Source: an uncultured bacterium
Lineage (GTDB): Bacteria; Hinthialibacterota; Hinthialibacteria; Hinthialibacterales; JAKPRU01
Assembly: GCA_964612675.1 (NCBI GenBank)
Contig: CAZTDD010000026.1
Span: 1 to 59,258, forward strand
Length of the DNA: 59,258 nt
Reading direction: 5' to 3'
The notes beneath the pieces are model-generated. The model had not been told where the DNA came from. It worked only from the letters and a program-made list of their open reading frames with translations, and did not search any database. Below are positions 12,898 through 59,258 of the stretch, piece after piece; position 1 is the first letter of the stretch, and the number at the start of each line of letters is the position of its first letter. Position numbers and translations under genes: made by a program.

Positions 12898-13040
12898 TTG
12901 AGCAAGTAGCGAGTTCGCTGCTGGGAGGGCGAGCCTCCCGGCGAGCCGAAAAGCATACTTTGTTGGGAGGGCGAGCCTCCCGGCGAGCCGGACAGTATCC
13001 GAAACTCGGCTCAGCAGGAGCTTCGCCCTCCCGACTCAAT
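12898..13040. mobile_element. MITE-like ~143-bp element carrying three GGGAGGGCGAGCCTCCCGGCGAGCCG hairpin units (two direct, one inverted), flanked by 9-bp direct repeats G[TA]CATCGAG
   Basis: Hairpin units at 12923-12948, 12965-12990 and, inverted, 13007-13032. Flanking direct repeats at 12889-12897 and 13041-13049. The same unit family recurs at 41262-41476. Confidence 0.45.
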
Positions 13041-14266: not shown

Positions 14267-15880
14267 ATGGGAACAATGAAACGCTGCGCACACTTTTTCC
14301 ACAACCTACGGACCGTTTTGCCAATGATCCTTGTGGTAGCCATGACAACAGGAACCGTCTTCGCACAGCAGACGCAGATAAAGTGGCGGGCTTTATTCGA
14401 TCAGACCCAGGGCCAAACCGGCACCTGGACGCCATTCCCGTTTCCCGGTCTGCCCGACGACTGGAGTGGCAGCCTGGCCCAATCGTTCGAGGTCAGTGAG
14501 CCCTTCATGGGCGTAGGCATCAGCAGCCCGACCTGGAACGGCCAGGGCGCAGGCTACTGGATGGCGCTCTACGAATGGACAGGAGACTACGCCTCCTCCG
14601 TCGAGGGCATTCCGATTATGGAGAAGGAGTTCTCCGACCTGGCCGACAACGCCGTCAATACCATGACATGGGACGAACCAGCCCCGCCGGGGCAGTATCT
14701 CCTTGTAACGGATGGACCGGTGCCATCCGACACAGGGAACGTGGGGCACTGGGGCTGGGTCAACTCCTCCTTCGCCACCGGTGATTTCCCTGCCGCGTTT
14801 CAAAACGGGGATTATCTCGACCTGGTTTATGAAGCCCCAACATTGGATGTCCGCGTCGGCTATGTGAGCATACGTACATTCACCGTGGTCGAGGAATTCT
14901 ACACAATGCAGGGAGACGACCACTCGCCGATCGATCTGTTGGGTGGAAGACATGTTGGACAACGATTCGCCGCCACTGCTCCTTTCGAAGGAGTAGAGGT
15001 TCACGGCCCGACATGGTCGGTCGACGGACAAAAGGGTATGACGATACGTTTGTGGTCCTGGGCGGGCTCGTATCAGGCAACCGTCGACCAGGACCCGTTG
15101 GCGGTTTCGGTTCTCGAACAACTGGACGATAACGATTGGTTCCCATGTGTGGCCGACACAACATTGGAACCGGGTGTCTATTTCTGGGAAGCGTCGGAGC
15201 CGACCAACCCCTTCAACCCAGACGATCGCCAAATCGGCGTTTGGCTCTCAAATCAGAGTCTCTATGCGGATGGGGAAGCCTATATTAACGGTGAACCCGC
15301 TCAAGAAGTCAGCGCTACGTGGGTTCGTCTGTTCGGTGGGCCAGACCAATCCGGTACGTGGACACCTTTCCAGTTTCCCGGCCTGCCGGACGATCGATCC
15401 GGAAGCCTGGCCCAGAATTTCGAGGCAACTGAACCGTTCGTCGGTGTCGGTATTCTCAGTCCAACGTGGAACGGTGCCGGTGCCGGGTATCGGATGACAC
15501 TGTTTGAATGGACAGGCGACTATGAGTCCTCCGTCGCCGGAGAGGTTCTCGCCCGGCAAACGTTCAACAACATCACCGACAACGGCCGCAACGACCTCGT
15601 GTGGGATGCACCTCTCGAGCCGGGGCAGTATTTGCTGGTGACGGATAATCCCGTCCCGTCCGACACCGGTCTGGTCGGGCACTGGGGCTGGGTGTTTTCA
15701 CCGTACGCCGTCGGCGATGTCCCGGCAGCGTTTGAAAACGGATGGTTTGCGGACGAGATTTACGAAACGCCCAGTTTAGACGTGTATCTCGCGGTTCCGA
15801 GCGAGCAGGCGACAGGAAAGGACTTTGAATCGAGGTCCATTATTGATGAAACGAGTATTGGCTCGTGGTCGCTCTATTAA
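14267..15880 (+). CDS. secreted protein made of two tandem ~170-aa homologous modules
   Basis: Signal peptide. TGTWTPFPFPGLPDDWSGSLAQSFEVSEPFMGVGISSPTWNGQGAGYWMALYEWTGDYASSV is repeated as SGTWTPFQFPGLPDDRSGSLAQNFEATEPFVGVGILSPTWNGAGAGYRMTLFEWTGDYESSV. ...QYLLVTD.PVPSDTG.VGHWGWV... is also duplicated. Confidence 0.75.
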   Translation: MGTMKRCAHFFHNLRTVLPMILVVAMTTGTVFAQQTQIKWRALFDQTQGQTGTWTPFPFPGLPDDWSGSLAQSFEVSEPFMGVGISSPTWNGQGAGYWMALYEWTGDYASSVEGIPIMEKEFSDLADNAVNTMTWDEPAPPGQYLLVTDGPVPSDTGNVGHWGWVNSSFATGDFPAAFQNGDYLDLVYEAPTLDVRVGYVSIRTFTVVEEFYTMQGDDHSPIDLLGGRHVGQRFAATAPFEGVEVHGPTWSVDGQKGMTIRLWSWAGSYQATVDQDPLAVSVLEQLDDNDWFPCVADTTLEPGVYFWEASEPTNPFNPDDRQIGVWLSNQSLYADGEAYINGEPAQEVSATWVRLFGGPDQSGTWTPFQFPGLPDDRSGSLAQNFEATEPFVGVGILSPTWNGAGAGYRMTLFEWTGDYESSVAGEVLARQTFNNITDNGRNDLVWDAPLEPGQYLLVTDNPVPSDTGLVGHWGWVFSPYAVGDVPAAFENGWFADEIYETPSLDVYLAVPSEQATGKDFESRSIIDETSIGSWSLY

Positions 15881-16725: not shown

Positions 16726-17952
16726 TTACTTCTTTTCTTCGCCCGTCGCTGCCCGGTGGAGTTTGACCTCGACCCTTTCGTCGTCTTTCAGACCACCGTA
16801 ATAAGCACGAAGGATCTCGAGTACTTCCGGCCGACTGAAGTCTTCCGGAACCTCGCCGCCTTCCGAGAGGGTCTTCCGAAGCACCGTTCCGCTCAGCAGG
16901 AGACGATCGTCTTTTCCGTGCGGGCAAGTCTTCATGGACGCCATGCCGCGGCACTTGAAGCAATAGAATGTCCAGTCGATCTTGAGAGGCCGTGTCTTCA
17001 ATGCGTCTTCCGAAATTTCATCGAAGATATCCTGTGCGTCGAATGGACCGTAATAGTCGCCGACGCCGGCGTGGTCGCGTCCGACGATCAAATGGCTGCA
17101 TCCGTAGTTCTGACGGAACACTGCGTGCAGGAGCGCTTCGCGCGGGCCACCATAGCGCATTTCCATCGGATATCCGCCACACATAACCGTATCTTTTACG
17201 AAGTAATTATCCACGAGTGTGTTGATGCATTTGACACGAACGTCAGCAGGAATATCGCCCGGTTTCAGTTTTCCGACCAGCTGATGAATGTAGAGCCCGT
17301 CGCAAACCTCGATAGCAATCTTCGCAAGATACTCGTGCGAACGGTGCATGGGATTTCGCAGCTGCAATGCCGCAACCCGGCTCCAGCCCTTATCTTCGAA
17401 CATCTTCCTACTTTCGGCGGGCCGCTGATATATTTCTTTGAATTCCTGCGGGTAATAGCTTTCACTAACCACTTTCACCGGTCCGGCCAGGTTCCACTCC
17501 GCCTGATCCATGACCTTGGCGACGCCGGGATGTTCCATGTCGTCCGTCCGGAACACCTGCGTGCATTCGTATTTCTTATCGATCTGGTACTTTTCGGTCA
17601 CTTTCATCGTGCCCATGATCGCGTCGGTATCACCGTCCACGAGGGCGACTTCCGAACCTTCGTTGATCGATCCAGCCACTTCCGGCGAAGCGGAAAGTGT
17701 AATCGGTATGGGCCAAAACACCCCATTCGACATTTTGTACTCGGCGCAGACGCCTTTCCAATCATCATGCCCCATGAATCCATCCAGAGGTGTAAACGCC
17801 CCGATACCCATCATGATCAAGTCGGAGGTTTCCCGGCTTGTCATGAGCACTTTTGGAAGGCTCTCCGCCTTCTTCATTTCCTGTTCCCGTTCCTGTCCAC
17901 TAAGAAGTAGTGGCTTTAATTGATCCGATCCGTGCGGTTGTACCAGAGCCAT
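16726..17952 (-). CDS. sat: sulfate adenylyltransferase (ATP sulfurylase)
   Basis: [11 protein letters not shown] and GRDHAGVG motifs. Full-length similarity to homo-oligomeric Sat. Confidence 0.9.
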
Positions 17953-18264
17953 CGCGTTCCTCCACCAAGCCGTTTGTTCCCAACCGATTCTTATGATTGA
18001 TTGGTTTTTTAGTGATCCTCGCCCATGGCGAAACTTTCACTTTGTGTTGGAAATGATGCCAGACCGGAACCACGCGGACAAGGGATCTTGGAAAAGAGAT
18101 CGTCACCGTGCAACCATTCAGACACGTTAGTTGTATATCTATGCGAATCAATTGGTTACCATTCACGACTCACTCCAGATACTCCGCTCCGAAGAAAAGG
18201 GCACCATGACCGTCATTGCGATCGAATCCGTCATTCCGAGGAGCGGACCGTCGTTCCGAGTCCC

Positions 18265-18406
18265 GGACCGTCGGAGCCGGTGATTTGGGAAAGAAAACGC
18301 GATCTCCGTTGCCGTCATGGCGAGCGAAGCGTGGCCATCTCGTTTTTCCGGTTCAACGGTGAGATTCCCACGTCGCTTCGCTCCTCGGAATGACGGATTC
18401 GGGAGC
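18265..18406 (+). repeat. 142-nt nested-hairpin element, copy 1 (partner at 53394-53535)
   Basis: About 90 % identical to copy 2. Outer stem GAGCGAAGCGTGG/CCACGTCGCTTCGCTC, inner stem ATCTCG/[CT]GAGAT. Ends 84 nt upstream of the radical SAM gene. Confidence 0.7.
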
Positions 18407-18489
18407 GTTTTCTCACAAGGCCCTTAGGATCAAAAACCCTGCCATCGCTGTCCCGTCCCCTGGTACACTTCCTGTAGAGGAGAAAGTCG

Positions 18490-19917
18490 ATGCGAGTTTT
18501 GCTACTGAACCCCCCGGGAGATCGGCCTTATCTGCGCGACTACTATTGCAGCCATTCCGCGAAGGCGCGTTATTTCTGGCATCCTTACGATCTCCTGGTA
18601 CAGAGCGGCATCCTGTCGCGCCGTCACGAGGTGTTCGGCCTGGACGCCAATGTTCATGGTCTCAGCTTCGAGGAGGCACGGCGGCGGGTGGGTGAACTTG
18701 GCCCGGATGCAATCTTATTGCTCACCGGCGCGGCCAGCTGGCAGAACGATTCCGCTTTCATGAAGCAACTCGAATTCCCGGGACCTGTCATCGGTACCGG
18801 CGATGTGATGCTGGTCAATGGAAAGGAACACATTCAGCGATTGGATTGGCTCACAGCAGTCTTGCAGGATTTCACCTCGGATTCGGCATCGCGGTATCTC
18901 GATGTCTTAGACCCAAAAACCAACGCCCCTGTTAACGGAGAGGTTCCGCTGCCCGACATGCTATACAGCCACGGCGATGAGATTATCGAAGGACCGCGAT
19001 CTCATGAGAAGTCCTTCCGTTTTCCCCTGCCCCGCATCGATATCTTCCCGATGAACCGGTACCGCATCCCTCACGGCATGTATCGAAAATTCTGGTCAAC
19101 CCTGACGGACTTTGGATGTCCGTTTCGGTGTAGCTTCTGTGTGAGCGGAACGTTGCCTTACAAAACAAGAGACATCGACAACGTGATCCGCGAGCTGCGG
19201 TATGCGCGTGATTTGGGTTACAAGGAAGTCTGGGTAAAAGACGTCACCTTTGGTGTCAGCCGAAAACACACGCGTGAGTTCCTTGACGCTTTGGAGAAAG
19301 AAAAACTCGGCCTGAAATGGGTTGCGCTTTCTCGTGTGGATGTAATGAACGAAGAGATTCTAGAGAAAATGGCGCGGACCGGCTGCCACACGATCCAACT
19401 CGGTGTCGAGTCGGCGGATGAGGCGATACTCGAGTCCATCGGTAAGCGAATCAAACCGCAGCGGGTAAAGGAAATTTTTGACACATGCCGAAGGACGGGT
19501 ATCCGAACACTGGCGCACTTTATTATCGGCCTGCCGGGCGAAACCGAGGAAAGCGCGCGGAAGACAATCGAATTCTCTAAGGAATTGGATCCGGATTTTG
19601 CTTCCTTCAACATCGCAACACCGAAAATCGGCACACCTCTCCGCACTGAGGCGGTTGAGAAAGGCTGGACCGATCCGCGAGTCGATGTCCTCGACAATTC
19701 GACCGCGTTTCCGGTGATGGAAATCGGAACATTGTCATCCCAGCGCGTTTGGGAATTACGCAACCAGGCTATCCGGGAATTTCATCTCCGGCCTCAGTAT
19801 ATACTGCGAAAGATAACGGGCATCCGGACACCGTGGGAGTTTTACCGATCGATTCAGAACGCAGCGACGCTGCTGAGATCCACAATGAACACGCCGAAGG
19901 GAGTGGAGATGGAGTGA
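18490..19917 (+). CDS. B12-binding domain radical SAM protein
   Basis: N-terminal B12-binding-like domain, then the CPFRCSFC radical SAM cluster motif. GAGGAG RBS. Confidence 0.85.
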   Translation: MRVLLLNPPGDRPYLRDYYCSHSAKARYFWHPYDLLVQSGILSRRHEVFGLDANVHGLSFEEARRRVGELGPDAILLLTGAASWQNDSAFMKQLEFPGPVIGTGDVMLVNGKEHIQRLDWLTAVLQDFTSDSASRYLDVLDPKTNAPVNGEVPLPDMLYSHGDEIIEGPRSHEKSFRFPLPRIDIFPMNRYRIPHGMYRKFWSTLTDFGCPFRCSFCVSGTLPYKTRDIDNVIRELRYARDLGYKEVWVKDVTFGVSRKHTREFLDALEKEKLGLKWVALSRVDVMNEEILEKMARTGCHTIQLGVESADEAILESIGKRIKPQRVKEIFDTCRRTGIRTLAHFIIGLPGETEESARKTIEFSKELDPDFASFNIATPKIGTPLRTEAVEKGWTDPRVDVLDNSTAFPVMEIGTLSSQRVWELRNQAIREFHLRPQYILRKITGIRTPWEFYRSIQNAATLLRSTMNTPKGVEME

Positions 19918-19964: not shown

Positions 19965-20351
19965 TCAATCTGTTAAAGATTCCAGGTATTTCCTGGCGGC
20001 CATCAGAAACTCACGAGCCTGTTCGAGCATGATCGTGACTGTCTCAGCATCAATGTCCATCTCAGCGTCATAGTCCCCTTTCAGCCTCCGGTCGAACGCA
20101 TCAAGCATCCAGCGATGGAACTTCGGATCGAGAATGCCCGCCTTAGCGAAATGCTCACCATAAGCCGAGTGAACACCGGAGTGTTTGCGATACGTTAGGT
20201 CATGTTGGCGCAGGAGTCCCTGCGCAACATGAAGCATAGCGTAATAAGCACGACCGGCAGCGAATTCTGTATCTCCGTTGTCGTACAGAATCTCGGCGGC
20301 AGCGAGAGCACGTTCGGCTTTCTCCAGAAACCTGCGAGACTCGTATTTCAT
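19965..20351 (-). CDS. HEPN-domain toxin of an MNT-HEPN pair
   Basis: 128 aa, all-alpha. Motif RRLKGDYD. 4-nt overlap with the upstream nucleotidyltransferase. Confidence 0.8.
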   Translation of the reverse strand: MKYESRRFLEKAERALAAAEILYDNGDTEFAAGRAYYAMLHVAQGLLRQHDLTYRKHSGVHSAYGEHFAKAGILDPKFHRWMLDAFDRRLKGDYDAEMDIDAETVTIMLEQAREFLMAARKYLESLTD

Positions 20352-20677
20352 GCTGATATCGCTTCTCCTCGTACGTTCTGGAGAAACATCGTGCCCTCAG
20401 TGTTCCATTGCTGCTCCGAAGTGAAAACCCGGCTGATACTCCTGCCAAATCTCAGTGAAAGTGACGCAATAATGGTGCTTGTCGAGTCGATCTCACGAGA
20501 GTAACTTTCCACACGGTCCAGCACAATCACGACGTCTACGTCAGATTCCCGGCCGGCTTCGTTCCGCGCGCAGGACCCAAACAGATAGACACCCTTCAGC
20601 CGGTCACCATAAACCAGGATAAGCTGCTTTTTGAGTTCATCGAGCAATTGTCGGATCTCTTCATTCATCTGTTCCAT
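20348..20677 (-). CDS. minimal nucleotidyltransferase (MNT) antitoxin
   Basis: GSCARNEAGRESDVDVVIV is the polymerase-beta-type hG[GS]x9-13Dh[DE]h motif. Confidence 0.85.
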   Translation of the reverse strand: MEQMNEEIRQLLDELKKQLILVYGDRLKGVYLFGSCARNEAGRESDVDVVIVLDRVESYSREIDSTSTIIASLSLRFGRSISRVFTSEQQWNTEGTMFLQNVRGEAISA

Positions 20678-32086: not shown

Positions 32087-32165
32087 AGAATTTCTCCAAA
32101 AAGGAATTCCCAGCGATGAATCGCTGGGCTATTATCGTTCGTCCATCGGACGGTCCGTCAGGCTT

Positions 32166-38592: not shown

Positions 38593-41261
38593 TCACTCAA
38601 TAATTCAAAATCGGGTTCCGGCTCTTCCTGTGCCATGGCGCTGGGAACGACTTTCCGATACACCTCGAATGGTTTCCGCAACACGCCATCGACAGTCAAA
38701 AGGTCTCGTTCGATCTCTATACCGAACAGACGCTCGTTCTCTCGCAGATAGGGTAGTATCAATTTCCAGTCTTCGGCTGTAAGCGATTGGTACGCTCCGG
38801 CGTTGAGCTGTTCCTGCACAAGCGTGCGATGCGGATCGCGAACGTAAATCGCGCCTCCGGAGGCCAGAGAAAGCAGATTGCTGCCCGGGTAAGGCAAATC
38901 CAGAGGAACGACACGGCCGTTCTCATCGAATCGGATACCATTCACAATTGCGAATCCGCCTCCCTTGAGTGGGTCGCCCGCCATGAACGACTCCGCCAGG
39001 AAATCGAGAGCGGTTCCGTTAATCACCACCCGGGGTTTCCCGACAGCGTTGATCATCGGCCTCCCGGCGGCGTTCCCCATGACATAGAATTCCCCGCCCT
39101 TCGCACCGTAAAGAAACGTCTGACCGACGTCGCCGTAAATCACGATTTTGCCTCGTTTGGCAATTTGGCAGAGCTGATCCTGCGCGTTGCAATGAACAAG
39201 CGCTTCGAGACCGTCTAGACCGGACCCGAGATAATCGCCGGGATTGTCATAACAATCCACACGAAGCCCGTCGGAGCTGGGACCGAAACCGGCCGCGTGA
39301 AAACGCGTCCCCCGCGTGTTGTAATGGATCAACCATTTCCAGCCGAGCTGGTAGGCATCGACCGCGAGTTTCGCGTCGCACGTCGGACCTTCGGGTGTAA
39401 AACCTCTCGCGTCAATCAAAAGGACTCTTTCGCCCGGGCGAGGTTCGCGGAGATCTTCACGTATCTCCCAATTCACTCTGCGACATGTTGACTCCGCTGT
39501 ATCGGTAAGAAGCGGTTGGCTCTCGAAAATCTTTCCAAGCCCGTCACGCAGAATGGTCAGAATGGAACTTCGCTTTTTCTCTCCGGTTGGATACTGACGG
39601 TCTAAACAAAGGGTCAATGCCTGGATACCGAGAAGCGGGTTGCTCTCTCCGCTTCGTTTTGCCGTTTCATCGACAAACCACCGAAGGCGGTCGTATGTCA
39701 TTTCCGCGAGAGAATCGCGAAAATACTCAAAAATGACTACAGGATTGTTACTCTCAATCGCACGTTGAATTTCCGCAGCGTCTCGCTCGCGTTCCTGCTC
39801 GGAAGGGGTCTTTAGTTCGGCGGTTGGTTTGTAAGCAACCTGATTTTGAGGCACCGTTACAGGAAGGCCGAACTTATTCGTCACTTGCATCGAGTAATGA
39901 CCGTTGCTGCCCGCAGAGCCGTTCGACGGGACAACATTCATCGCAAATGCCCCACCGTCCGAGTAACTTCCACCGCGCGCGTTCCAGTACATATCCGCAA
40001 CAGGCCGGAAACGGTTGTCTTCGGACGACAAACTGGCCAACGTCGCATCAATCGCCTGTTTTTCGGAACAGATCAACCCGGTAGAGACTTCGCCTTCCTG
40101 TAACGCGAAAACTTGCGGCCGCAGCATCGCTGTATCCGTGATTCCAACCAATTGATAGCCGGCTTCTTTTCCGAGATTGCGCGCAATGATGAAAAACCAC
40201 GGACCGTCGGGCGATCCGTGCATATGTGCCGCCTGGATTTGACGATAAATCCGACGCTTGTCCGCAGCCAACCGGTCGAAGTCCAGTTCGGTAGTCGGTG
40301 CGAGCGCTTCGATGATGTATTCCAGGGGATACTTGTATGTCCGGTTCATTAAATCGAAAAGAAGTACCGAGACTTCAGTATCTGTAATAAACAATGGAAA
40401 TAGATTCCGCTGCGCAAGATACTCGCTGACCGAAACATAATTGGCAAAGTCGCCGTTATGTACCAGCGCTTCGTTCATCCCAATGAACGGGTGGGCTCCG
40501 CCGGGATGCCATACACGACCACGCGTTGGATAGCGCTGGTGAGCGATCCACACATGGGCACGTAAATCCGGCATCCGGTAATACTGAACCGCAGCCTCGG
40601 CGTATCCCACGATTTTAATGATAAAGAGATTCCGAGCGTGCGAGAGAACGAAAGCCCGCTTCTCGCCCAAAGAAGAATAGAATTCCGTATTCAACAGAAA
40701 CGAATTCTGAAAAACAAATTCATCCTCGATTTCGCGTTCGGGAAGATGAGTCAGTCCTTTTTCCTGAGCGAACTGTGCGAGGACGTCCGACTTCACACGA
40801 ACGAAATACCGGGCGACTTCCGGGGGTTTGATCTCCAGCAATGGTACGTCCCGGTAATCGTCGACAGTTGGAATCACCCCTCCCTGATGAATATCGAAGT
40901 ATGGCTCGATACGGCTCTTTTCGACATCCTTCTGCGCCTCAGGATCCAAGAGGGCGATTTGGAGGATATAGTCTTCGTCGATCTCTTTTTGCGTGACGCC
41001 CAGATCCTCGGGCACAATCCCGCATGCGGCAATTCCGCCTCCCCGTCCGTTTCCGCGATTCCGCATTTGGATGGAGGGCTCGTAGATGTGACGGCCCCCG
41101 ACAGGGACGGTACAAGCGAATCCCGTCACACCGCAGCCGCCCTCGGCTTCCGTGGGTTTTGGGAACCAGGATTCGCCCTCTTTAGGCCGCAGATGGGATC
41201 GCGACCGAATCAGCATATTGGCCCGATTCAAGTTATTGATTTCCATTGTCTTTGAACTCAT
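38589..41261 (-). CDS. glutamate-synthase-like fusion: class-II glutamine amidotransferase (GltA-like) + GXGXG domain (GltC-like)
   Basis: The GGCGVTGF Ntn-type Cys is preceded by ~40 aa. C-terminal IVIYGDVGQTFLYGAKGGEFYVMGNAAGRPM...NGTALDF GXGXG repeats. Confidence 0.75.
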   Translation of the reverse strand: MSSKTMEINNLNRANMLIRSRSHLRPKEGESWFPKPTEAEGGCGVTGFACTVPVGGRHIYEPSIQMRNRGNGRGGGIAACGIVPEDLGVTQKEIDEDYILQIALLDPEAQKDVEKSRIEPYFDIHQGGVIPTVDDYRDVPLLEIKPPEVARYFVRVKSDVLAQFAQEKGLTHLPEREIEDEFVFQNSFLLNTEFYSSLGEKRAFVLSHARNLFIIKIVGYAEAAVQYYRMPDLRAHVWIAHQRYPTRGRVWHPGGAHPFIGMNEALVHNGDFANYVSVSEYLAQRNLFPLFITDTEVSVLLFDLMNRTYKYPLEYIIEALAPTTELDFDRLAADKRRIYRQIQAAHMHGSPDGPWFFIIARNLGKEAGYQLVGITDTAMLRPQVFALQEGEVSTGLICSEKQAIDATLASLSSEDNRFRPVADMYWNARGGSYSDGGAFAMNVVPSNGSAGSNGHYSMQVTNKFGLPVTVPQNQVAYKPTAELKTPSEQERERDAAEIQRAIESNNPVVIFEYFRDSLAEMTYDRLRWFVDETAKRSGESNPLLGIQALTLCLDRQYPTGEKKRSSILTILRDGLGKIFESQPLLTDTAESTCRRVNWEIREDLREPRPGERVLLIDARGFTPEGPTCDAKLAVDAYQLGWKWLIHYNTRGTRFHAAGFGPSSDGLRVDCYDNPGDYLGSGLDGLEALVHCNAQDQLCQIAKRGKIVIYGDVGQTFLYGAKGGEFYVMGNAAGRPMINAVGKPRVVINGTALDFLAESFMAGDPLKGGGFAIVNGIRFDENGRVVPLDLPYPGSNLLSLASGGAIYVRDPHRTLVQEQLNAGAYQSLTAEDWKLILPYLRENERLFGIEIERDLLTVDGVLRKPFEVYRKVVPSAMAQEEPEPDFELLSE

Positions 41262-41476
41262 ATCCGTCTCGGCTCGGCGGGAGCCTCGCCCTCCCGGGCC
41301 TGTCGCCTTCTGAATTTGGCTCCCCTAGTCCTTCTCGGCTCGGCAGGAGCCTCGCCCTCCCGGGCCTGTCGCCTTCCGGATTTGTCTCACCTAGTCCTTG
41401 AACTCATGTTCGTCTCGGCTCGGCGGGAGCCTTGCCCTCCCGGGCCTGTCGCCTTCCGGATTTGTCTCACCTAGTT
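41262..41476. repeat. three tandem 66-80-bp units, each with a GGGAGGGCGAGGCTCCCGCCGAGCCG hairpin (minus-strand sense), between two operon genes
   Basis: Units start near 41267, 41333 and 41413. Each also duplicates the first ~14 nt (ATGAGTTCAAG) of the downstream gene start. Confidence 0.75.
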
Positions 41477-48250: not shown

Positions 48251-48760
48251 ACGAAGAACCTCGAAATGCGTTTACTGAATTATTCGGAGGAAGTGCCATA
48301 ATGAACGAAAACACCGAACAGAAACCAAAGCCGGGAATCTGTATACCATGGGAAGAAAAACTGAAAGAAATTCCCGAGATCCAAGGCGATCATGAAATCG
48401 TTAAACAAAAATGGGAAGAAAACGAGTTTTTTGCACACCTGTATGTGTGGCATTGTCTTGTCTCGTTTTAATGAGGATTTTGATTCCGTCACAAGCCCAC
48501 GCGAAACGTGGTAATCGTAGGGTCGGCTCACGGGCGTTATATCGGAACATTCCTTCCGACTCATTATCACGTAAGCCCGTAGCCCACCACTATCTGTTCG
48601 GAATTCGCACCAAGCAACCGGTTGGTGGGCTACGGGCTCCAGTAGACATTAACCGGACACCGCAGCGCGATACGACGCCCGTGAGCCCACCCTACAGCCG
48701 TCCACCAGACTTCTTGCCCCCCGTCAGATTTTGGCGGTCCCGCAAAAAGTCCGGAGCGTT

Positions 48761-48970
48761 CTTCTCCCTCTCCCTCTGGGAGAGGGCCGGGGTGAGGGAA
48801 CGTTGCATTTTCCGGTGACGTTCCATTGTACGTGACAGACCCCTGTCATCATCCAACCCCTTTGCCGCTGATTCATTTGCTGTCTCTGACGAATACACAG
48901 GCTAGTCATGATAAACGAACCCGATGCAATTAACGCCCCTCACCCTACCCCTCTCCCGGGGGGAGAGGGA
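48761..48970. repeat. inverted pair of CCCTCACCC..CCCTCTCCC-N3-5-GGGAGAGGG palindromic units flanking ~135 bp
   Basis: Units at ~48761-48797 (reverse orientation) and ~48938-48970. The same family occurs at 59093-59258. Confidence 0.6.
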
Positions 48971-49025
48971 ACTTCCGATGCCAACTTTCGACTTTTTGCG
49001 ACGGCATCAGATTCTGGCGAAAAGA

Positions 49026-51322: not shown

Positions 51323-53287
51323 ATGCCGTACCGATCCCGCTTTCTTTTCTTCTCTCTCGCGTTTCTGCTTGTTTCCGGTTCCTCGTTGAGCTTGTGCACA
51401 TTCGGGGCGGAGGTACCGACATATGACGCGGACACCAAGGGTGTGTACCTTCGTGAATGGCTTCTGTGCGGGCCGTTTCCCAACAGCCTCAGCACCGATG
51501 TAACCGATTACATGCACGGTGAACGATGCATTGGCTTTGAGCGGGATTACCTGGTCGGCATTGGCGGAGAACAGCACGCCGATCCCCGCCCCGGCCAGAC
51601 CGTTGAAATCGAAGATCTCAAACTAAAACATGATTGGTTCACGTTCGAGTCGGAAACCGACGAGGTCCGTTTGAACGATGTATTCTCACCCAACGATCTT
51701 GTCGTCGGGTACGCATTCTGCCATCTCCAATCGAAAAAGAAACAAAGAGTAATGTTGTCCGTCGGCAGCAACGACGGAATCAAGATATGGCTCAACGGCG
51801 AGCTGGTTCATCGTTTCCATGTGCCGCACGGACGCTGGCTGCAGAAAGATGATGACTACGTCCCGGTGGAACTGCAACAAGGCGTGAACCGTTTGCTCTT
51901 AAAGATCGACGAGGGCAGTGGAGATTTCGGTTTCGTGGTTCGTCTTCTGGATTACAAAGAGACAGTCACGAACCTTCGTACACACATGGACGAACACAAA
52001 CACCTATCGGTGATTACACGGGAAGACGAAGTCGTCGTCACATTCGGCACGCCGCACCGAATTGAAGCGCTGTCACCCGGAAACCACGTAAAGATCGATA
52101 TTGTCGATGAGACCGGTGAGATTGTCGATACACAATCGGGAACGCCCGGTTTCGAGCAAGTCTTCCCCTTGGACAAGGTCCCGGAAGGACGTTTCACAGT
52201 AAGGGCGGAATTCGCGCTATCGGACGGCGAGAAAATCGTCTCGGAAAAAGAGCATTTCAAAGGCTTACTTCCCAGACACCCACTGCCCAAGCGACTCGGT
52301 GCGGACCTCGCAATGCGGAATGCTGAAGGGAAGCCATTTTTCCCGATTGGAACGTACGGTGCCCCTGTCGATCAGTATGAGCGAATTCGCCAGGCCGGAT
52401 ACACATTTGTCGTGGGCGGCACGGGGTCGCTCGATGCCGCTGAAGCCGCAGGCTTGAAAATGGGCGTTTCAATCCATGGACACGGAGCCGATTGGCTGGA
52501 TGAAATTCGCGAGACGGTTCGGGCTCACCGCGATCATCCCGCCCTCTTATTTTGGATGCTGTTCGACGAACCCGGTTACAACAAAGCCGATTTGATGCTG
52601 ATCCACGACGCGTACAATTTGATTTATGACGAGGATCCCGTCCATCCGGTGTACCTCGTGATTACGAATCCGAAAGTCTACGAGACATTTGGACGATGCT
52701 GCGATGTTCTGGCAGTCGATACCTATCCGATTTCACGCAGCGACATATCGAAAGTCCCCGAAAACATCGCTAGGGCCTACCGTGTTTCGGACGGCGACCA
52801 ACCGGTTTGGCATTGCGGACAGCTGTTCAGCTGGCCGGCGGACCGCTACCCGACTCCTAAGGAACACCGCCTGATGACCTATTCCGCGATTCAGGCGGGA
52901 ACAAAAGCTATGCTTTGGTATACCTATTCATGGCGGGGCGATGCGTTGCCGGAAACCGTACCAGTCCTTTGGGAAGAACATCTACAAATAATGGCCGAAC
53001 TCAAAGAACTGGAACCGGTAATCGTTTATCCGGGACTCGGCGAGAATCTCGGAACCGGCCATCACTCGCTGCGAGCTACCGCAAAACGCGGCCCGGATAA
53101 TTCGCTTACGGTTTTTGCAGTGAATGTCTCGGAAGAAAAAACAGTCACATCGCGGATACAATTACCGACAACCTTTACGGGCGATATCGAAGTCCTTTTT
53201 CAAAACCGCAGTCAACACATTGAAAACGGATTATTATGCGATCGGTTTGCACCATTGGATGTGCACATCTATCGATTGAATCCTTGA
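51323..53287 (+). CDS. secreted two-domain protein: N-terminal beta-sandwich (PA14/CBM-like) + C-terminal TIM-barrel glycoside-hydrolase-like domain
   Basis: Signal peptide. FWMLFDEPGY resembles the GH NEP catalytic-acid block. Confidence 0.45.
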   Translation: MPYRSRFLFFSLAFLLVSGSSLSLCTFGAEVPTYDADTKGVYLREWLLCGPFPNSLSTDVTDYMHGERCIGFERDYLVGIGGEQHADPRPGQTVEIEDLKLKHDWFTFESETDEVRLNDVFSPNDLVVGYAFCHLQSKKKQRVMLSVGSNDGIKIWLNGELVHRFHVPHGRWLQKDDDYVPVELQQGVNRLLLKIDEGSGDFGFVVRLLDYKETVTNLRTHMDEHKHLSVITREDEVVVTFGTPHRIEALSPGNHVKIDIVDETGEIVDTQSGTPGFEQVFPLDKVPEGRFTVRAEFALSDGEKIVSEKEHFKGLLPRHPLPKRLGADLAMRNAEGKPFFPIGTYGAPVDQYERIRQAGYTFVVGGTGSLDAAEAAGLKMGVSIHGHGADWLDEIRETVRAHRDHPALLFWMLFDEPGYNKADLMLIHDAYNLIYDEDPVHPVYLVITNPKVYETFGRCCDVLAVDTYPISRSDISKVPENIARAYRVSDGDQPVWHCGQLFSWPADRYPTPKEHRLMTYSAIQAGTKAMLWYTYSWRGDALPETVPVLWEEHLQIMAELKELEPVIVYPGLGENLGTGHHSLRATAKRGPDNSLTVFAVNVSEEKTVTSRIQLPTTFTGDIEVLFQNRSQHIENGLLCDRFAPLDVHIYRLNP

Positions 53288-53393
53288 GAAGGCTGAATCG
53301 AAAGTTCTTGTAAGCATAAAGCCGAGGAAATCGGCGATTTAAAAAGAAAATGTGAGTGTTTGCATCCGGTTACTTTGCCGTCATCGGGAGCCA

Positions 53394-53535
53394 CGGACCG
53401 TCGGAGCCGGTGATTTGAGGAAGAAACCGCGGTCCCCGTTGCCGTCATGGCGAGCGAAGCGTGGCCATCTCGTTTTGTCCGATTCAACAGCGAGATTCCC
53501 ACGTCGCTTCGCTCCTCGGAATGACGGATTCGAGC
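53394..53535 (+). repeat. 142-nt nested-hairpin element, copy 2
   Basis: Same length and about 90 % identity to 18265-18406. A partial extra arm lies at ~53374-53393. Ends ~100 nt upstream of the SDR gene. Confidence 0.7.
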
Positions 53536-53637
53536 GCGTAGGGTGGGTTAGCGACGATCTGTCTGCAGACACTCCCGACGCGCACTTCAGAGGAGCGTAA
53601 CCCACCGAAACCACTTTATCGCTTAAGAAAAAAAACA

Positions 53638-54375
53638 ATGTCCGACACATCAAAAAAAGCCGTAATCATCGGCGCAACATCGGGTATCGGAAGAGCAGTC
53701 ACCGAACACCTTATCGAACAGGGGTTCTATGTAGGAATCACAGGAAGACGAGAGGAACTTCTTAAAGAGTTCTTCGCCCGCCACCCGGAACGTACCTATT
53801 TCAAGAAAATGGATGTGGGTCAACCATCGGAAGCCGTTCAATTGTTGATCGAGTTGATTGACGAGTTGGGCGGCATGGATCTGATTGTCATCAGCGCGGG
53901 TATCGGACTCCTGAATCCCAGCCTGAAATGGGCCGGCGAGAAACAGACAATCGACGTCAATGTATCCGGGTTCACCGCCCTTGCCGACACCGCGATGCTT
54001 CATTTTTTCAAGCAAGGGCACGGTCACCTGGTCGGGATCAGCTCCATCGCCGCATTCAGGGGATACGGTGACGCACCCGCTTATTACGCATCCAAAGCGT
54101 ATATGTCGAACTACCTGGATGGTCTTCGGTTCAAAGCAACGAAATCGAAAGTCCCGATTTACGTAACCGATATCAAACCCGGCCTTGTCGACACACCCAT
54201 GATCAAAGGTCAGGAGGGAATGTTTTGGGTGGCCACTACGGAGACAGCCGCCAAACAGATATTCCGCGCGATACAGAAAAAGAAGAAACGGGCATACGTC
54301 ACAAGACGTTGGCGTATCATCGCGTGGATGATGAAAATGATGCCCGATTTTCTTTACCAACGTTTTTGGCAATAA
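53638..54375 (+). CDS. SDR-family oxidoreductase
   Basis: GATSGIGRA cofactor motif and YxxxK (YYASK) catalytic motif. Confidence 0.88.
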   Translation: MSDTSKKAVIIGATSGIGRAVTEHLIEQGFYVGITGRREELLKEFFARHPERTYFKKMDVGQPSEAVQLLIELIDELGGMDLIVISAGIGLLNPSLKWAGEKQTIDVNVSGFTALADTAMLHFFKQGHGHLVGISSIAAFRGYGDAPAYYASKAYMSNYLDGLRFKATKSKVPIYVTDIKPGLVDTPMIKGQEGMFWVATTETAAKQIFRAIQKKKKRAYVTRRWRIIAWMMKMMPDFLYQRFWQ

Positions 54376-57305: not shown

Positions 57306-59246
57306 TTACATTCCACCGATCCTCCCATTCAGCTTTAAATCATTCACCAACACGGATGATTCTACTCCAGGCCCACCATTCTGAACGACGCAGAGAACAG
57401 GAAACGCTGGATTCTCGGCGGTGAATCCGCCACCGATGGTCACCTCCTGGAATTCAGCACCCGCTAATCCTGCGTTGTTTACGAAGACACCGACGTTGCC
57501 GTTTCCGTTTGTCATTACCAACGCCGTTACGCCACCCTCTCCATCGAACAATCGCGCATCGACCGATGCCTGAAGCATATGTGGAAAACCGCCCTGGAGC
57601 TGACTCGCGAAGGCGCCGATATTCGCGGCGTCATTCGTTTGCGTGAGTGACAATAGGAAATTGTTCCCGCCTTGTGCATCCGGGAACGGAAGCGCTGTTC
57701 CGCCATTTTCGGCCATTACATTCTTTAATAAACCGGACGTATCTCCGTCAAACGAACCATCGACATCCAGCGTGACATTTTCAAATGGAAATTCCGGCAA
57801 TTCGGAAATAACCAGATTATCGAAATACACTTTTACCGGTCCCGCTGCCGATTCCGGCAAAGCGACTTGAAGTCCAGGCTGAAGCGCGTCCGAAGGCGGA
57901 TCATAAATGAGAACGAATTTGCCCCACTCGCCGACAGGCACATCCGCACCACTTGCGTTCGAATACCCCAGCTGTCCATCAATCGGCGAATTGAGTGCGG
58001 CTAACGCCGCTGAACAACCTTCGCCATCGGCTCGCACATTTACGGACAACAACACTGCACCGTCGCCCGTCGAGATCGGCACGGTCGAAATCGCCAATGT
58101 GCCCTGGCCCGGTTGAGCTTCGATAATCAAGCCACGGCCGTCCGTGCCTGGACCTGCTGGAACGTCACCGACGGAAATTGCCGCTGCGTCAAATCCGGTT
58201 GCGGGACTATACACAAATCCTGCTTCTTCGACTGTTGCTTCCGAGAAATCGATCTGAGCGAGAACATTCTGCGGAGCCGGCGTTGGTGTCGGCTCGTCGC
58301 CACCCTCAAGCGGTCGATAATATTTTCCGCGATTGTCCGCGTATGCTACATTACCGAGCGTGTCGACCGCTTGGACAAAAAACTCGATACCGGCGACTTT
58401 CGTTAATTCGCCTTGCCAGATCAATGGATTCGAAGACAACTGGTCAAGATCAACTGGGTTCCATTCGCCGGTTCCGTCCGTCCATAACGCGACAACTCGA
58501 TACAACGGATCGCCGTCGACATCTTCCGCTTCAACAGTAATCAAAACGCGTTCGCCCTGAACGATTACGGACGGATCGCTGACAGTCGGTGGTGTTTCGC
58601 TGGATTCGCTGCCTGTGTAATACGTGCTGTAGCGAAGTTCTTCGTACAGGCGCTCCTGCTTCGTTTGATCGTTGTATTGACCCGCAACGAAGACGAAACG
58701 TTGAAGCGGAGGCAGGCCGCCCTGCGCCGCAATTGTATTCACCGTAAACGGTATCGCAGGGAAGAAGCCTTGTTTATCGAAAATTCCTTCTTGGGCTTCG
58801 CCCGCTCCCCATTGCGAACCTTCGATGACAGGGTCGAAATTGTCGATTACTTCGTATTTCGCATACTCAAGGACAGCACCTTTCGGGAAGAAGCCTTCAG
58901 TGCCGGTGATATAGCCTGCGCGCGGCTGGACCGGTTCATTGACGTTGGCCTGAGTGATTCCATTAAATGCATAGAAAATCCCGGATTCGGTTTCGTGTTT
59001 TTCGAGGAATTGTTTGTCAATCAATTCGATACGCTGGCTGCGGAGGAGTCCTTCTCCGACGGCGTTCGGTTCTGCCCAGAGGATATTTTCCCTCACCCTA
59101 ACCCTCTCCCAGAGGGAGAGGGGACTGGTTGTCTTTGGCAGCAAGTCTTCTTTTCTTTCTGTGACGGAGAGCGGACTCTCCGTTTCTGCAAGTAGTTTCT
59201 TCTCCCTCTCCCAGAGGGAGAGGGGACTGGTTGTCTTTGGCAGCAA
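57306..59246 (-). CDS. large secreted/surface hypothetical protein (5' end uncertain, N-terminus reads through repeats)
   Basis: Long ORF with Gly/Asp-rich beta-type composition. The first ~55 codons are translations of the CCCTCTCCC/GGGAGAGGG repeat, so the true start or upstream extension is unresolved at the window edge. Confidence 0.5.
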   Translation of the reverse strand: MLPKTTSPLSLWEREKKLLAETESPLSVTERKEDLLPKTTSPLSLWERVRVRENILWAEPNAVGEGLLRSQRIELIDKQFLEKHETESGIFYAFNGITQANVNEPVQPRAGYITGTEGFFPKGAVLEYAKYEVIDNFDPVIEGSQWGAGEAQEGIFDKQGFFPAIPFTVNTIAAQGGLPPLQRFVFVAGQYNDQTKQERLYEELRYSTYYTGSESSETPPTVSDPSVIVQGERVLITVEAEDVDGDPLYRVVALWTDGTGEWNPVDLDQLSSNPLIWQGELTKVAGIEFFVQAVDTLGNVAYADNRGKYYRPLEGGDEPTPTPAPQNVLAQIDFSEATVEEAGFVYSPATGFDAAAISVGDVPAGPGTDGRGLIIEAQPGQGTLAISTVPISTGDGAVLLSVNVRADGEGCSAALAALNSPIDGQLGYSNASGADVPVGEWGKFVLIYDPPSDALQPGLQVALPESAAGPVKVYFDNLVISELPEFPFENVTLDVDGSFDGDTSGLLKNVMAENGGTALPFPDAQGGNNFLLSLTQTNDAANIGAFASQLQGGFPHMLQASVDARLFDGEGGVTALVMTNGNGNVGVFVNNAGLAGAEFQEVTIGGGFTAENPAFPVLCVVQNGGPGVESSVLVNDLKLNGRIGGM

Positions 59247-59258
59247 GTCTTCTTTTCT
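59093..59258. repeat. two copies of the 55-bp unit CCCTCTCCCAGAGGGAGAGGGGACTGGTTGTCTTTGGCAGCAAGTCTTCTTTTCT, 96 bp apart, running into the window edge
   Basis: Copies at ~59108-59162 and ~59204-59258. An internal palindrome CGGAGAGCGGACTCTCCG lies between them. Confidence 0.65.

Follow-up and report, generated by a model that had tools for sequence, protein, structure and literature searches.

What is a nested hairpin element of about 142 nt doing in two unrelated intergenic gaps of a single bacterial contig? The contig, 59,258 nt long, comes from an uncultured bacterium of the Hinthialibacterota (GenBank CAZTDD010000026.1; its whole length is called the window here), and the element stands once between the divergent genes for ATP sulfurylase (sat) and a radical-SAM protein (rSAM), and once between the gene for a 654-aa protein and a short-chain dehydrogenase/reductase (SDR) gene. 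An earlier note on this DNA had offered two readings: a dispersed structured repeat, of the repetitive extragenic palindromic (REP) or miniature inverted-repeat transposable element (MITE) kind, or a cis-regulatory RNA leader shared by the genes downstream. We find that covarying hairpin modules make up the element, and that they belong to a cross-phylum family whose members flank small GIY-YIG genes in other genomes; that copying of the composite, as a unit of 160 nt, has placed it in two or more unrelated intergenic gaps; and that it is dispensable, because a sister lineage has the corresponding site empty. Each copy is probably a small group of clustered REP-like hairpin repeats of the CGTC/TGTC-tagged kind that crosses phyla (CGTC REPs, the dRS3/NTS repeats of Neisseria, and the Ssn-related motifs, SRM), its modules being proposed sites of an Ssn-type nuclease for single-stranded DNA (ssDNA).

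The homologous stretch runs from 18248 to 18408 in copy 1 and from 53378 to 53539 in copy 2 (161 and 162 nt), and the two differ by 16 substitutions and one indel of 1 nt. Their identity is 89% overall and 92% within the 142-nt range first described, so that the likeness of about 90% between copies of equal length reported in the earlier note holds over a longer stretch than it had claimed. The flanks do not align, again as described, homology ending after 18408; one 23-mer of the core is found at exactly two places in the window and in none of 100 shuffles. Short-read contigs from the same organism end inside the right arm at both copies, as is expected for a repeat. The nested fold stands as well: treated as DNA, the 87-nt core folds at -23.6/-25.0 kcal/mol on the plus strand and -22.2/-24.3 kcal/mol on the minus strand (z about -4 on either strand; 0 of 200 shuffles as good). 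Folded as RNA, copy 1 (206 nt) reaches -101.7 kcal/mol (z -5.2) and copy 2 with its own flanks a z of only -1.7. One detail of the first description keeps only its factual half, for the change from CGAGAT in copy 2 to TGAGAT in copy 1, taken to preserve pairing in the inner stem, is real (C versus T at 18360) but, as a single site, has no statistical weight.

The core of each copy can be read as a dimer of two full modules, one of ATGGC/GCCAT and one of ATTCC/GGAAT type, with decayed or truncated heads to its left (Table 1). Each module carries a CGTC tag (18313-18316 and 53443-53446 on the plus strand; 18392-18395 and 53523-53526 on the minus strand), and both dimers have the tags-outward arrangement (HH), with the tags 80-81 nt apart. 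The differences between the copies are distributed very unevenly over these parts: none of the 17 falls within the 67 positions of the two modules, against 17 in the 94 positions elsewhere (Fisher p = 1e-4). This module identity, set beside 18% divergence in the remainder, may reflect recognition of the modules or gene conversion among copies. Copy 1 reaches farther left than copy 2, to about 18211, and a pattern search places CGTCATTSCGAG-type heads in it at 18211, 18229, 18249 and 18313 (plus strand) and at 18384-18395 (minus strand); the window as a whole holds 8 such matches, 1.95 being expected. What had been noticed as a partial arm upstream of each hairpin is real and turns out to be larger, comprising several heads and, in copy 1, a 32-nt terminal inverted repeat (18223-18254 against 18370-18401, 91% complementary) whose left member copy 2 lacks.

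We scanned public collections—species-representative genomes, IMG/VR viral contigs and metagenome contigs—with short exact strings from the modules, and collected 744 module heads from 193 loci (1.46 Mb). Modules take the general form of a (C/T)GTC tag, ATNNC, GA, an inner stem and loop of free sequence, G(T/A)(G/A), GN'N'AT and a C(T/C)N tail, about 30 nt in all; that is, a 5-bp outer stem, a GA / G(T/A)(G/A) internal loop, an inner stem of 2-6 bp and a GNA loop mostly of 3 nt. The NN and N'N' positions are Watson–Crick complementary in 308 of 329 modules, in six types (TG/CA, GG/CC, CG/CG, CA/TG, AG/CT and TC/GA), and a seventh, CC/GG, was seen in a larger module set. They are likewise complementary in 370 of 390 bystander modules and in 122 of 129 ATTCC heads (then GGAAT), two sets confined to modules whose 3' half lay outside every search pattern. 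Among unique unbiased modules the count is 181 of 206, with 98 expected and none of 2,000 permutations reaching 181. An alignment of 52 unique modules has 95.3% paired cells versus 83.3% when shuffled, and 36 double-sided changes versus 10.1 (0/500); the pairing breaks down once the partner is displaced by 1-3 columns, and columns 4:35 and 5:34 are invariant AU/UA.

The inner part, by comparison of 94 unique modules, comprises 75 distinct sequences, with stems longer than in its own shuffles and closed mostly by a C-GNA-G triloop (GAA 16, GCA 10, GTA 4, GGA 3). The DNA form of this motif, d(C-GNA-G), for example d(GCGAAGC), is an unusually stable mini-hairpin, and no comparable stability is known for C-GNA-G in RNA; the triloops are a hint that the folded form is DNA rather than RNA. 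The two partners of each window dimer differ in NN (GG/CC versus TC/GA), each pairing only with itself at those positions, which favours separate hairpins over a protein that reads a double-stranded palindrome. K-turn and sarcin–ricin readings of the internal loop were rejected by inspection, their strand lengths being unsuitable, and CRISPR, type III antitoxin arrays and integron attC sites were rejected on spacing and sequence.

The source genome is absent from the species-representative and metagenome collections scanned. A 20-mer, GAGCGAAGCGTGGCCATCTC, has 40 loci in species-representative genomes, spread over Deltaproteobacteria (12 loci, in one metagenome-assembled genome, MAG), Halomonas garicola (in tandem arrays), Nitrospirota, Aminicenantes, Dehalococcoidia, Alphaproteobacteria, a Rickettsia MAG, Eubacteriales and Bacteroidales. 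The common module form is represented, by a 26-mer, in 32 IMG/VR viral contigs, in several of which arrays of 2-6 modules fill intergenic gaps, and the ATTCC-type head has at least 120 matching stretches in metagenome contigs from soils, sediments and the human gut. The tag reads TGTC in 82% and CGTC in 15% of the 744 heads. Adjacent pairs are tags-outward (HH) in 150 cases, tandem (HT) in 166, arrays and rows of truncated heads included, and tags-inward (TT) in 52, with 185 modules standing singly; in the 150 HH dimers the tags lie 52-172 nt apart, mostly 70-130 nt. A row of truncated or decayed heads beside a complete dimer, the layout of copy 1, recurs at Halomonas, Dehalococcoidia, Nitrospirota and Aminicenantes loci. 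By crude and noisy calls of open reading frames (ORFs), modules in the fetched loci lie between unidirectional, convergent and divergent ORFs and within long ORFs, in both orientations. Literature searches with sequence or peptide strings returned primers only, among them a 12-mer match to a Coxiella IS1111 primer that we judged coincidental. Six-frame translation of copy 1, compared with a protein database with an eye to spurious ORFs called over other copies, shared words with 7,380 candidates, none at E <= 0.001.

Several of these loci show arrangements of their own. In one IMG/VR contig (L041: 2669-2860, 11850-11970 and 12666-12790), arrays of 3-6 modules, spaced 37-45 nt where measured and separated by pyrimidine-rich spacers, reach apparent minus-strand ribosome-binding sites and start codons in the stretches read, with all modules on the strand opposite those genes. 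The window's exact right module ends a conserved sequence of about 100 nt (..ATTGCGTCTGTAGCGGCGCTCACTGAGCGCC..) in ten human-gut contigs among the matches listed (L082-L084, L091, L095, L098, L103, L117, L120 and L124), a sequence for which Rfam gave no match, and in two others (L113, 6372-7034, and L118) it lies within a 320-nt tandem unit. In the Deltaproteobacteria MAG (CP064976; L001, L007, L019, L029, L036 and L037) the HH dimer is found inside a larger, near-identical unit of about 150 nt with inverted ends AAATTCCGCA...TGCGGAATTT, present in at least six copies, which looks like a MITE with the dimer as cargo.

Could the element nevertheless act as a riboswitch-like leader that controls the rSAM and SDR genes? 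Both copies fold well and both are co-oriented with the gene downstream, 81 nt (copy 1) and 98 nt (copy 2) from its ATG, much as had been described; with two copies, co-orientation is a 50% chance expectation. Comparison with relatives speaks against such a role. In a sister lineage sampled three times (L205, L206 and L208), whose rSAM is 89% identical to that of the window in amino acids and 79% in nucleotides, the divergent sat–rSAM pair is kept, with a spacer of 307 nt versus 537 nt in the window; the three spacers are virtually identical, both of their ends can be aligned with the spacer of the window, the element lies in the roughly 230 nt by which the latter is longer, and the three contigs contain no module. 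More distant rSAM orthologues (72-74% aa) also lack it, one having an 85-nt spacer and another a 240-nt spacer without modules. All orthologues examined do share a TGnTAnACT motif 20-30 nt upstream of the rSAM ATG—TGGTAGACT in the sister contigs (L205, about 3975) and TGGTACACT in L077/L078 (L077, about 515), in each case without the element—and in the window this motif lies downstream of the element. From its sequence it may be an extended -10 promoter element, so that the rSAM transcript would probably start after the element. In yet another relative (L079, 1-230, and L080, 1-200; rSAM 72% aa) about nine tandem copies of a different, 25-nt hairpin repeat, GGCCAGGCGTCTCTGCCTGGTAGTA, stand upstream of rSAM, both contigs ending inside them.

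A comparison with Rfam, suggested in the earlier note as a check, recovered no known family: Rfam 15 gave no match of the element at the gathering score in the window, nothing relevant on both copies at E <= 10, and nothing relevant at the gathering score in 22 related loci. The best sub-threshold match was the S-adenosylhomocysteine (SAH) riboswitch model, at 17.8 bits against a 37-bit cut-off (E 0.44), on the minus strand, which is the wrong one. Scans of both regions for sigma-70 promoters and terminators yielded nothing above shuffle expectation. Moreover, modules identical to these are found whatever the arrangement of the surrounding genes, across many phyla and also in phages, and the enzyme that acts on their nearest characterized relative, the Neisseria NTS, works on ssDNA and not on RNA (PMC11893778). 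A shared leader is in our view highly improbable, and the alternative of a dispersed structured repeat is the one that stands, given a tags-outward CGTC/TGTC dimer found in many phyla, in all gene contexts and both orientations, and missing from the sister sat–rSAM spacer. If sat, rSAM, the 654-aa gene or the SDR gene is affected at all, this is probably incidental. For annotation, the element should be masked as a repeat and not carried as a leader or riboswitch candidate for the rSAM and SDR genes. For copy 2 we found no informative relative with an empty site: the contig with a 92%-identical orthologue of the 654-aa gene (L201, ENA NODE_85558, 1,984 nt) has an Illumina adapter, AGATCGGAAGAGCACACGTCTGAACTCCAGTCAC, at its end (about 1935-1970), an assembly artefact; that of an SDR relative reaches just 73 nt upstream of the gene; and the 62% orthologues of the 654-aa gene are not syntenic.

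What, then, might recognize the modules? About half of the dRS3 repeats have been shown to be a longer oriented element, NTS (CGTCATTCCCGCGMAVGCGGGAATCYRG), which is bound by SsnA, a 94-aa single-domain GIY-YIG nuclease that cuts just upstream of it, on one strand only and in ssDNA only, not in double-stranded DNA or RNA (Chenal 2025; PMC11893778). The ssnA genes are typically flanked by the repeats (NTS-ssnA-NTS), the NTS/SsnA pair modulates natural transformation in N. meningitidis, and SRM and Ssn homologues are spread over many phyla (PMC11893778). We built a hidden Markov model (HMM) from four GIY-YIG ORFs found by a motif screen, and searched the fetched loci and the window with it. The fetched loci contain five single-domain GIY-YIG ORFs of 83-96 aa, with the GIY-YIG domain only (PF01541, E 1e-15 to 1e-19); Pfam assigns nothing besides PF01541, and NCBIfam has no specific model for them. 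All five are accompanied by interrupted-stem modules no farther than about 150 nt away, on both sides in L008, L009, L186 and L193 and on one side in L177, and in L193 and L177 one flanking module is the exact 32-mer of window positions 18363-18394. Stretches within 150 nt of a module head make up just 10% of the fetched bases, so that chance would rarely place all five ORFs there (about 1e-5); L186 and L193 are near-duplicates, and the four independent cases bring the chance to about 1e-4.

By analogy, an Ssn-type nuclease whose gene lies outside the window may recognize the modules of this organism as ssDNA. On this model, which takes its folding step from the NTS/SsnA work, each module would fold into its own hairpin when the DNA becomes single-stranded; its unpaired 5' CGTC tag and its 3' tail would serve for recognition; and an Ssn-family ssDNA nuclease, a small protein with a single GIY-YIG domain whose gene would lie elsewhere in the genome, would bind the hairpin and nick just upstream of it, on that strand only. 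An HH dimer would thus present one recognition site on each strand.

A number of our observations weigh against this account. The HMM search found no GIY-YIG ORF in the 59-kb window, and the nearest solved relatives (PDB) of the five GIY-YIG ORFs are UPF0213 GIY-YIG proteins. Searched with a covariance model of the module, the 59 kb yield exactly four full modules, with partial heads at noise level elsewhere. The left part of the element is lineage-specific, for a BLAST search of the element against all fetched loci matched the module core and right end only; a 22-mer particular to that part, GACCGTCGGAGCCGGTGATTTG, had no match in the metagenome scan. Single modules are no more stable than their shuffles (z -0.2 and +0.9), the hairpin being evident from covariation alone. 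Published CGTC REPs, compared here by their text description, have an uninterrupted stem of 8-9 bp and a loop of 4-5 nt (Di Nocera 2013; PMC3733652), whereas the stems of the window modules are interrupted (5 bp, internal loop, 2-6 bp) and their loop is mostly 3 nt. The SRM pattern, HGTCWYN(0-2)YYVSBRHN(0-5)WNVSBRGN(0-2)RNCYNB, matches NTS but neither the window modules nor the common module types; by inspection its 5' part (HGTCWY) and its 3' part (RNCYNB, as ATCTCG) fit them, and its central stem does not. Finally, nicking by an Ssn nuclease is not enough to account for the copying of the 160-nt composite.

That last point is where a classical non-autonomous transposon must be weighed, either a MITE whose terminal inverted repeats are recognized by a DDE transposase or a REPIN mobilized by a RAYT/IS200-type tyrosine transposase. 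Neisseria Correia elements are an example of a bacterial MITE. With bacterial MITEs (for example Coxiella QMITE2, PMC5896051) the element shares its composite build of about 150-200 nt, terminal inverted repeats (the 32-nt, 91% repeat of copy 1), an embedded REP, an intergenic setting and dispensability, and the presence of the entire composite, non-module parts included, at two unrelated sites, like the empty site in the sister lineage, is what a transposon would produce; in the Deltaproteobacteria MAG the HH dimers indeed ride in a larger MITE-like unit with ends of its own. It differs from them in that no related autonomous insertion sequence is known here, that the left terminal repeat of copy 2 is missing, and that there is no recognizable target-site duplication: we found no direct repeat at the borders of either copy or by comparison with the empty site, whose relative is 21% diverged and leaves the borders blurred.

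Likeness to REPINs extends further. The GTAG REPs and REPINs, which reportedly go with RAYT transposases, are also short imperfect palindromes with an unpaired terminal tag, arranged as inverted pairs that, together with the spacer between them, can form a single long hairpin; the architecture of two inverted REPs and a spacer is the same here, as are clusters resembling bacterial interspersed mosaic elements (BIMEs) and, as a partner, an enzyme that recognizes ssDNA hairpins. The tag here, however, is CGTC/TGTC and not GTAG, and the candidate partner is a GIY-YIG nuclease and not an HUH tyrosine transposase. No RAYT-like ORF was seen in the window or in 72 loci by a motif screen (HUH plus YxxNP, a weak test), and CGTC repeats have been reported not to flank any transposase gene and to lack a dedicated transposase (PMC3733652). 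On balance we regard a transposon of either type as unlikely.

The Ssn-site interpretation could itself be carried further. The interrupted-stem modules might form a distinct class of Ssn-type hairpins that the SRM pattern misses, cross-phylum and phage-borne and with a GIY-YIG clade of their own, and composites such as this one might be copied by way of Ssn nicks on both strands of an HH dimer. We put this forward as a long shot. Were it true, it would amount to a GIY-YIG-based mobility of repeats and would explain CGTC repeats without a transposase; the 0 of 67 differences in the modules, against 18% divergence elsewhere, would then reflect ongoing recognition or templated repair.

Might the dimers work at the level of RNA instead, as a hairpin in the 3' untranslated region (3'-UTR) of the upstream gene (a stabilizer of the messenger RNA or a terminator, as has been proposed for REPs) or as a MITE-derived small RNA? 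Copy 2 lies 90 nt downstream of the 654-aa gene and is co-oriented with it, and the dimer forms a strong hairpin as RNA too; single modules in unidirectional contexts show a mild same-strand bias (44 versus 20, on the same crude ORF calls), and most REPs are located 3' of ORFs and are presumed to be transcribed (PMC3733652). Copy 1, in contrast, lies between divergent genes, so that no upstream gene reads into it, and no U-tract follows either dimer, the one weak terminator-like match, in copy 1, being at the shuffle rate. C-GNA-G triloops stabilize DNA rather than RNA, and SsnA leaves RNA untouched. A role of this kind seems to us quite improbable as the main explanation, and it could coexist with recognition by an Ssn-type nuclease, for instance as a 3'-UTR hairpin for the 654-aa gene.

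Table 1. Parts of the two copies and neighbouring features, in window coordinates
Feature	Position	Strand	Basis or remark
Outermost truncated module head, copy 1: CGTCATTGCGATCGAATC	18211..18228	+	Pattern search; weak covariance-model match 18212-18228; absent from copy 2
Left terminal inverted repeat, copy 1: 3'-truncated ATTCC-type module CGAATCCGTCATTCCGAGGAGCGGACCGTCGT	18223..18254	+	Repeat search; head at 18229
Left shared region, copy 1: decayed head CCGTCGTTCCGAG, then lineage-specific linker	18248..18312	+	11 of the 17 inter-copy differences here
Left full module, copy 1: CGTC tag, ATGGC..GCCAT hairpin and TCG tail, CGTCATGGCGAGCGAAGCGTGGCCATCTCG	18313..18342	+	Covariance-model match 18314-18339, 38.4 bits, E = 4.5e-5; same in copy 2
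Dimer spacer (loop), copy 1	18343..18359		4 of the 17 inter-copy differences here or at its edge (18360)
Right full module, copy 1: CGTCATTCCGAGGAGCGAAGCGACGTGGGAATCTCA, ATTCC..GGAAT type	18360..18395	-	Covariance-model match 18363-18394, 39.8 bits
Shared right end, copy 1: GATTCGGGAGCGT	18396..18408	+	Copy comparison
Left shared region, copy 2: decayed head CCGTCATCGGGAG and linker	53378..53442	+	Copy comparison
Left full module, copy 2, identical to 18313-18342	53443..53472	+	Covariance-model match 53444-53469
Dimer spacer, copy 2, 1 nt longer than that of copy 1	53473..53490		Copy comparison
Right full module, copy 2, differing from copy 1 only in a tail base	53491..53526	-	Covariance-model match 53494-53525
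Shared right end, copy 2: GATTCGAGCGCGT	53527..53539	+	Copy comparison
Conserved cTGgTACACT motif (extended -10-like), outside the element	18460..18469	+	Between the element and the rSAM ATG at 18490
ATP sulfurylase gene (sat), left of copy 1	16726-17952	-	
Radical-SAM gene (rSAM), right of copy 1	18490-19917	+	
Gene for 654-aa protein, left of copy 2	51323-53287	+	No Pfam match
SDR gene, right of copy 2	53638-54375	+	

The genome is rich in intergenic repeats. A second palindromic family, with units like GGGAGGGCGAGCCTCCCGGCGAGCCG, occupies 12919-13035 and 41248-41475, the latter as three tandem units spaced 66 and 80 nt apart and 79-90% identical to the reference copy. A third, made of CCCTCTCCC..GGGAGAGGG and CCCTCACCC palindromes, lies at 48759-48973 and 59088-59258; within it 59102-59156 is repeated with 100% identity at 59204-59258, up to the contig end, and an GGGAGAGGG-like motif also stands beside a module in one fetched locus (L028). 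There are besides two 66-nt direct repeats at the contig start (10-75 and 121-186, 80% identity), an inverted pair of 28 nt (48517-48544 and 48668-48695, 89%, 123 nt apart), and a 191-nt internal repeat (72%; 14413-14603 and 15346-15536) in a 537-aa ORF (14267-15880) that has no Pfam match. The sole Rfam match in the window is an Acido-Lenti-1 RNA (RF01687) at 32109-32152 on the plus strand, scoring 37.6 bits against a gathering score of 37. Directly downstream of rSAM lies a gene pair for HEPN and nucleotidyltransferase proteins (19965-20677, minus strand), and such a pair also adjoins the 73%-identical rSAM orthologue of L077/L078 (2050-2767), on the other strand.

Of the known systems, it is the CGTC-tagged REP superfamily and the NTS/SRM repeats that the modules resemble most directly. 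The former is defined by an unpaired CGTC or TGTC tag (or CCTC), stems that start A-T and T-A, and a 3-nt tail, and comprises four CGTC families (CGTC-1 to -4) from five phyla, Neisseria dRS3 and Rickettsia RPE-4/RPE-6 included; HH dimers with the tags outside and spacers of 20-100 bp predominate, and heterodimers are frequent (PMC3733652). The window modules share the tag, the A-T/T-A stem start (ATGGC/GCCAT and ATTCC/GGAAT) and the HH dimer, and their kind has in common with the superfamily that heterodimers are frequent, that several phyla are represented and that no transposase gene is adjacent. The tail here is CTC/TCG, and over the modules at large a conserved tail reads C-TCG/TCA/TCC/CGT; the published consensus is CCA.

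Repeats of the second system are hairpins of 20-50 nt oriented by a conserved, non-palindromic 5' flank, and their partner belongs to CDD family cd10448 (PMC11893778). Here the likeness covers the oriented hairpin, the unpaired 5' CGTC tag, a stem starting with AT, an ATCYNB-like tail and an intergenic, multi-copy, cross-phylum distribution, and the window's right module has CGTCATTCC...GGGAATCTC in common with NTS itself; the difference lies in the interrupted stem of the window modules, with 5 bp, a GA / G(T/A)(G/A) internal loop and a variable inner stem closed by a GNA triloop. That identical 20-32-mers recur across many phyla and viral contigs, and that modules adjoin small GIY-YIG genes, extends the recent Ssn/NTS finding, and suggests that searches with the published SRM pattern find too few such sites: the interrupted-stem class is very widespread, phage contigs included, and escapes that pattern. 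In this interrupted-stem form the range of the CGTC/NTS-type repeat extends to an uncultured lineage that has its closest named protein matches in Candidatus Hinthialibacter and Omnitrophota MAGs, and an organism in which copies are few and an insertion can be dated could help in learning how CGTC repeats multiply and what Ssn sites do outside Neisseria.

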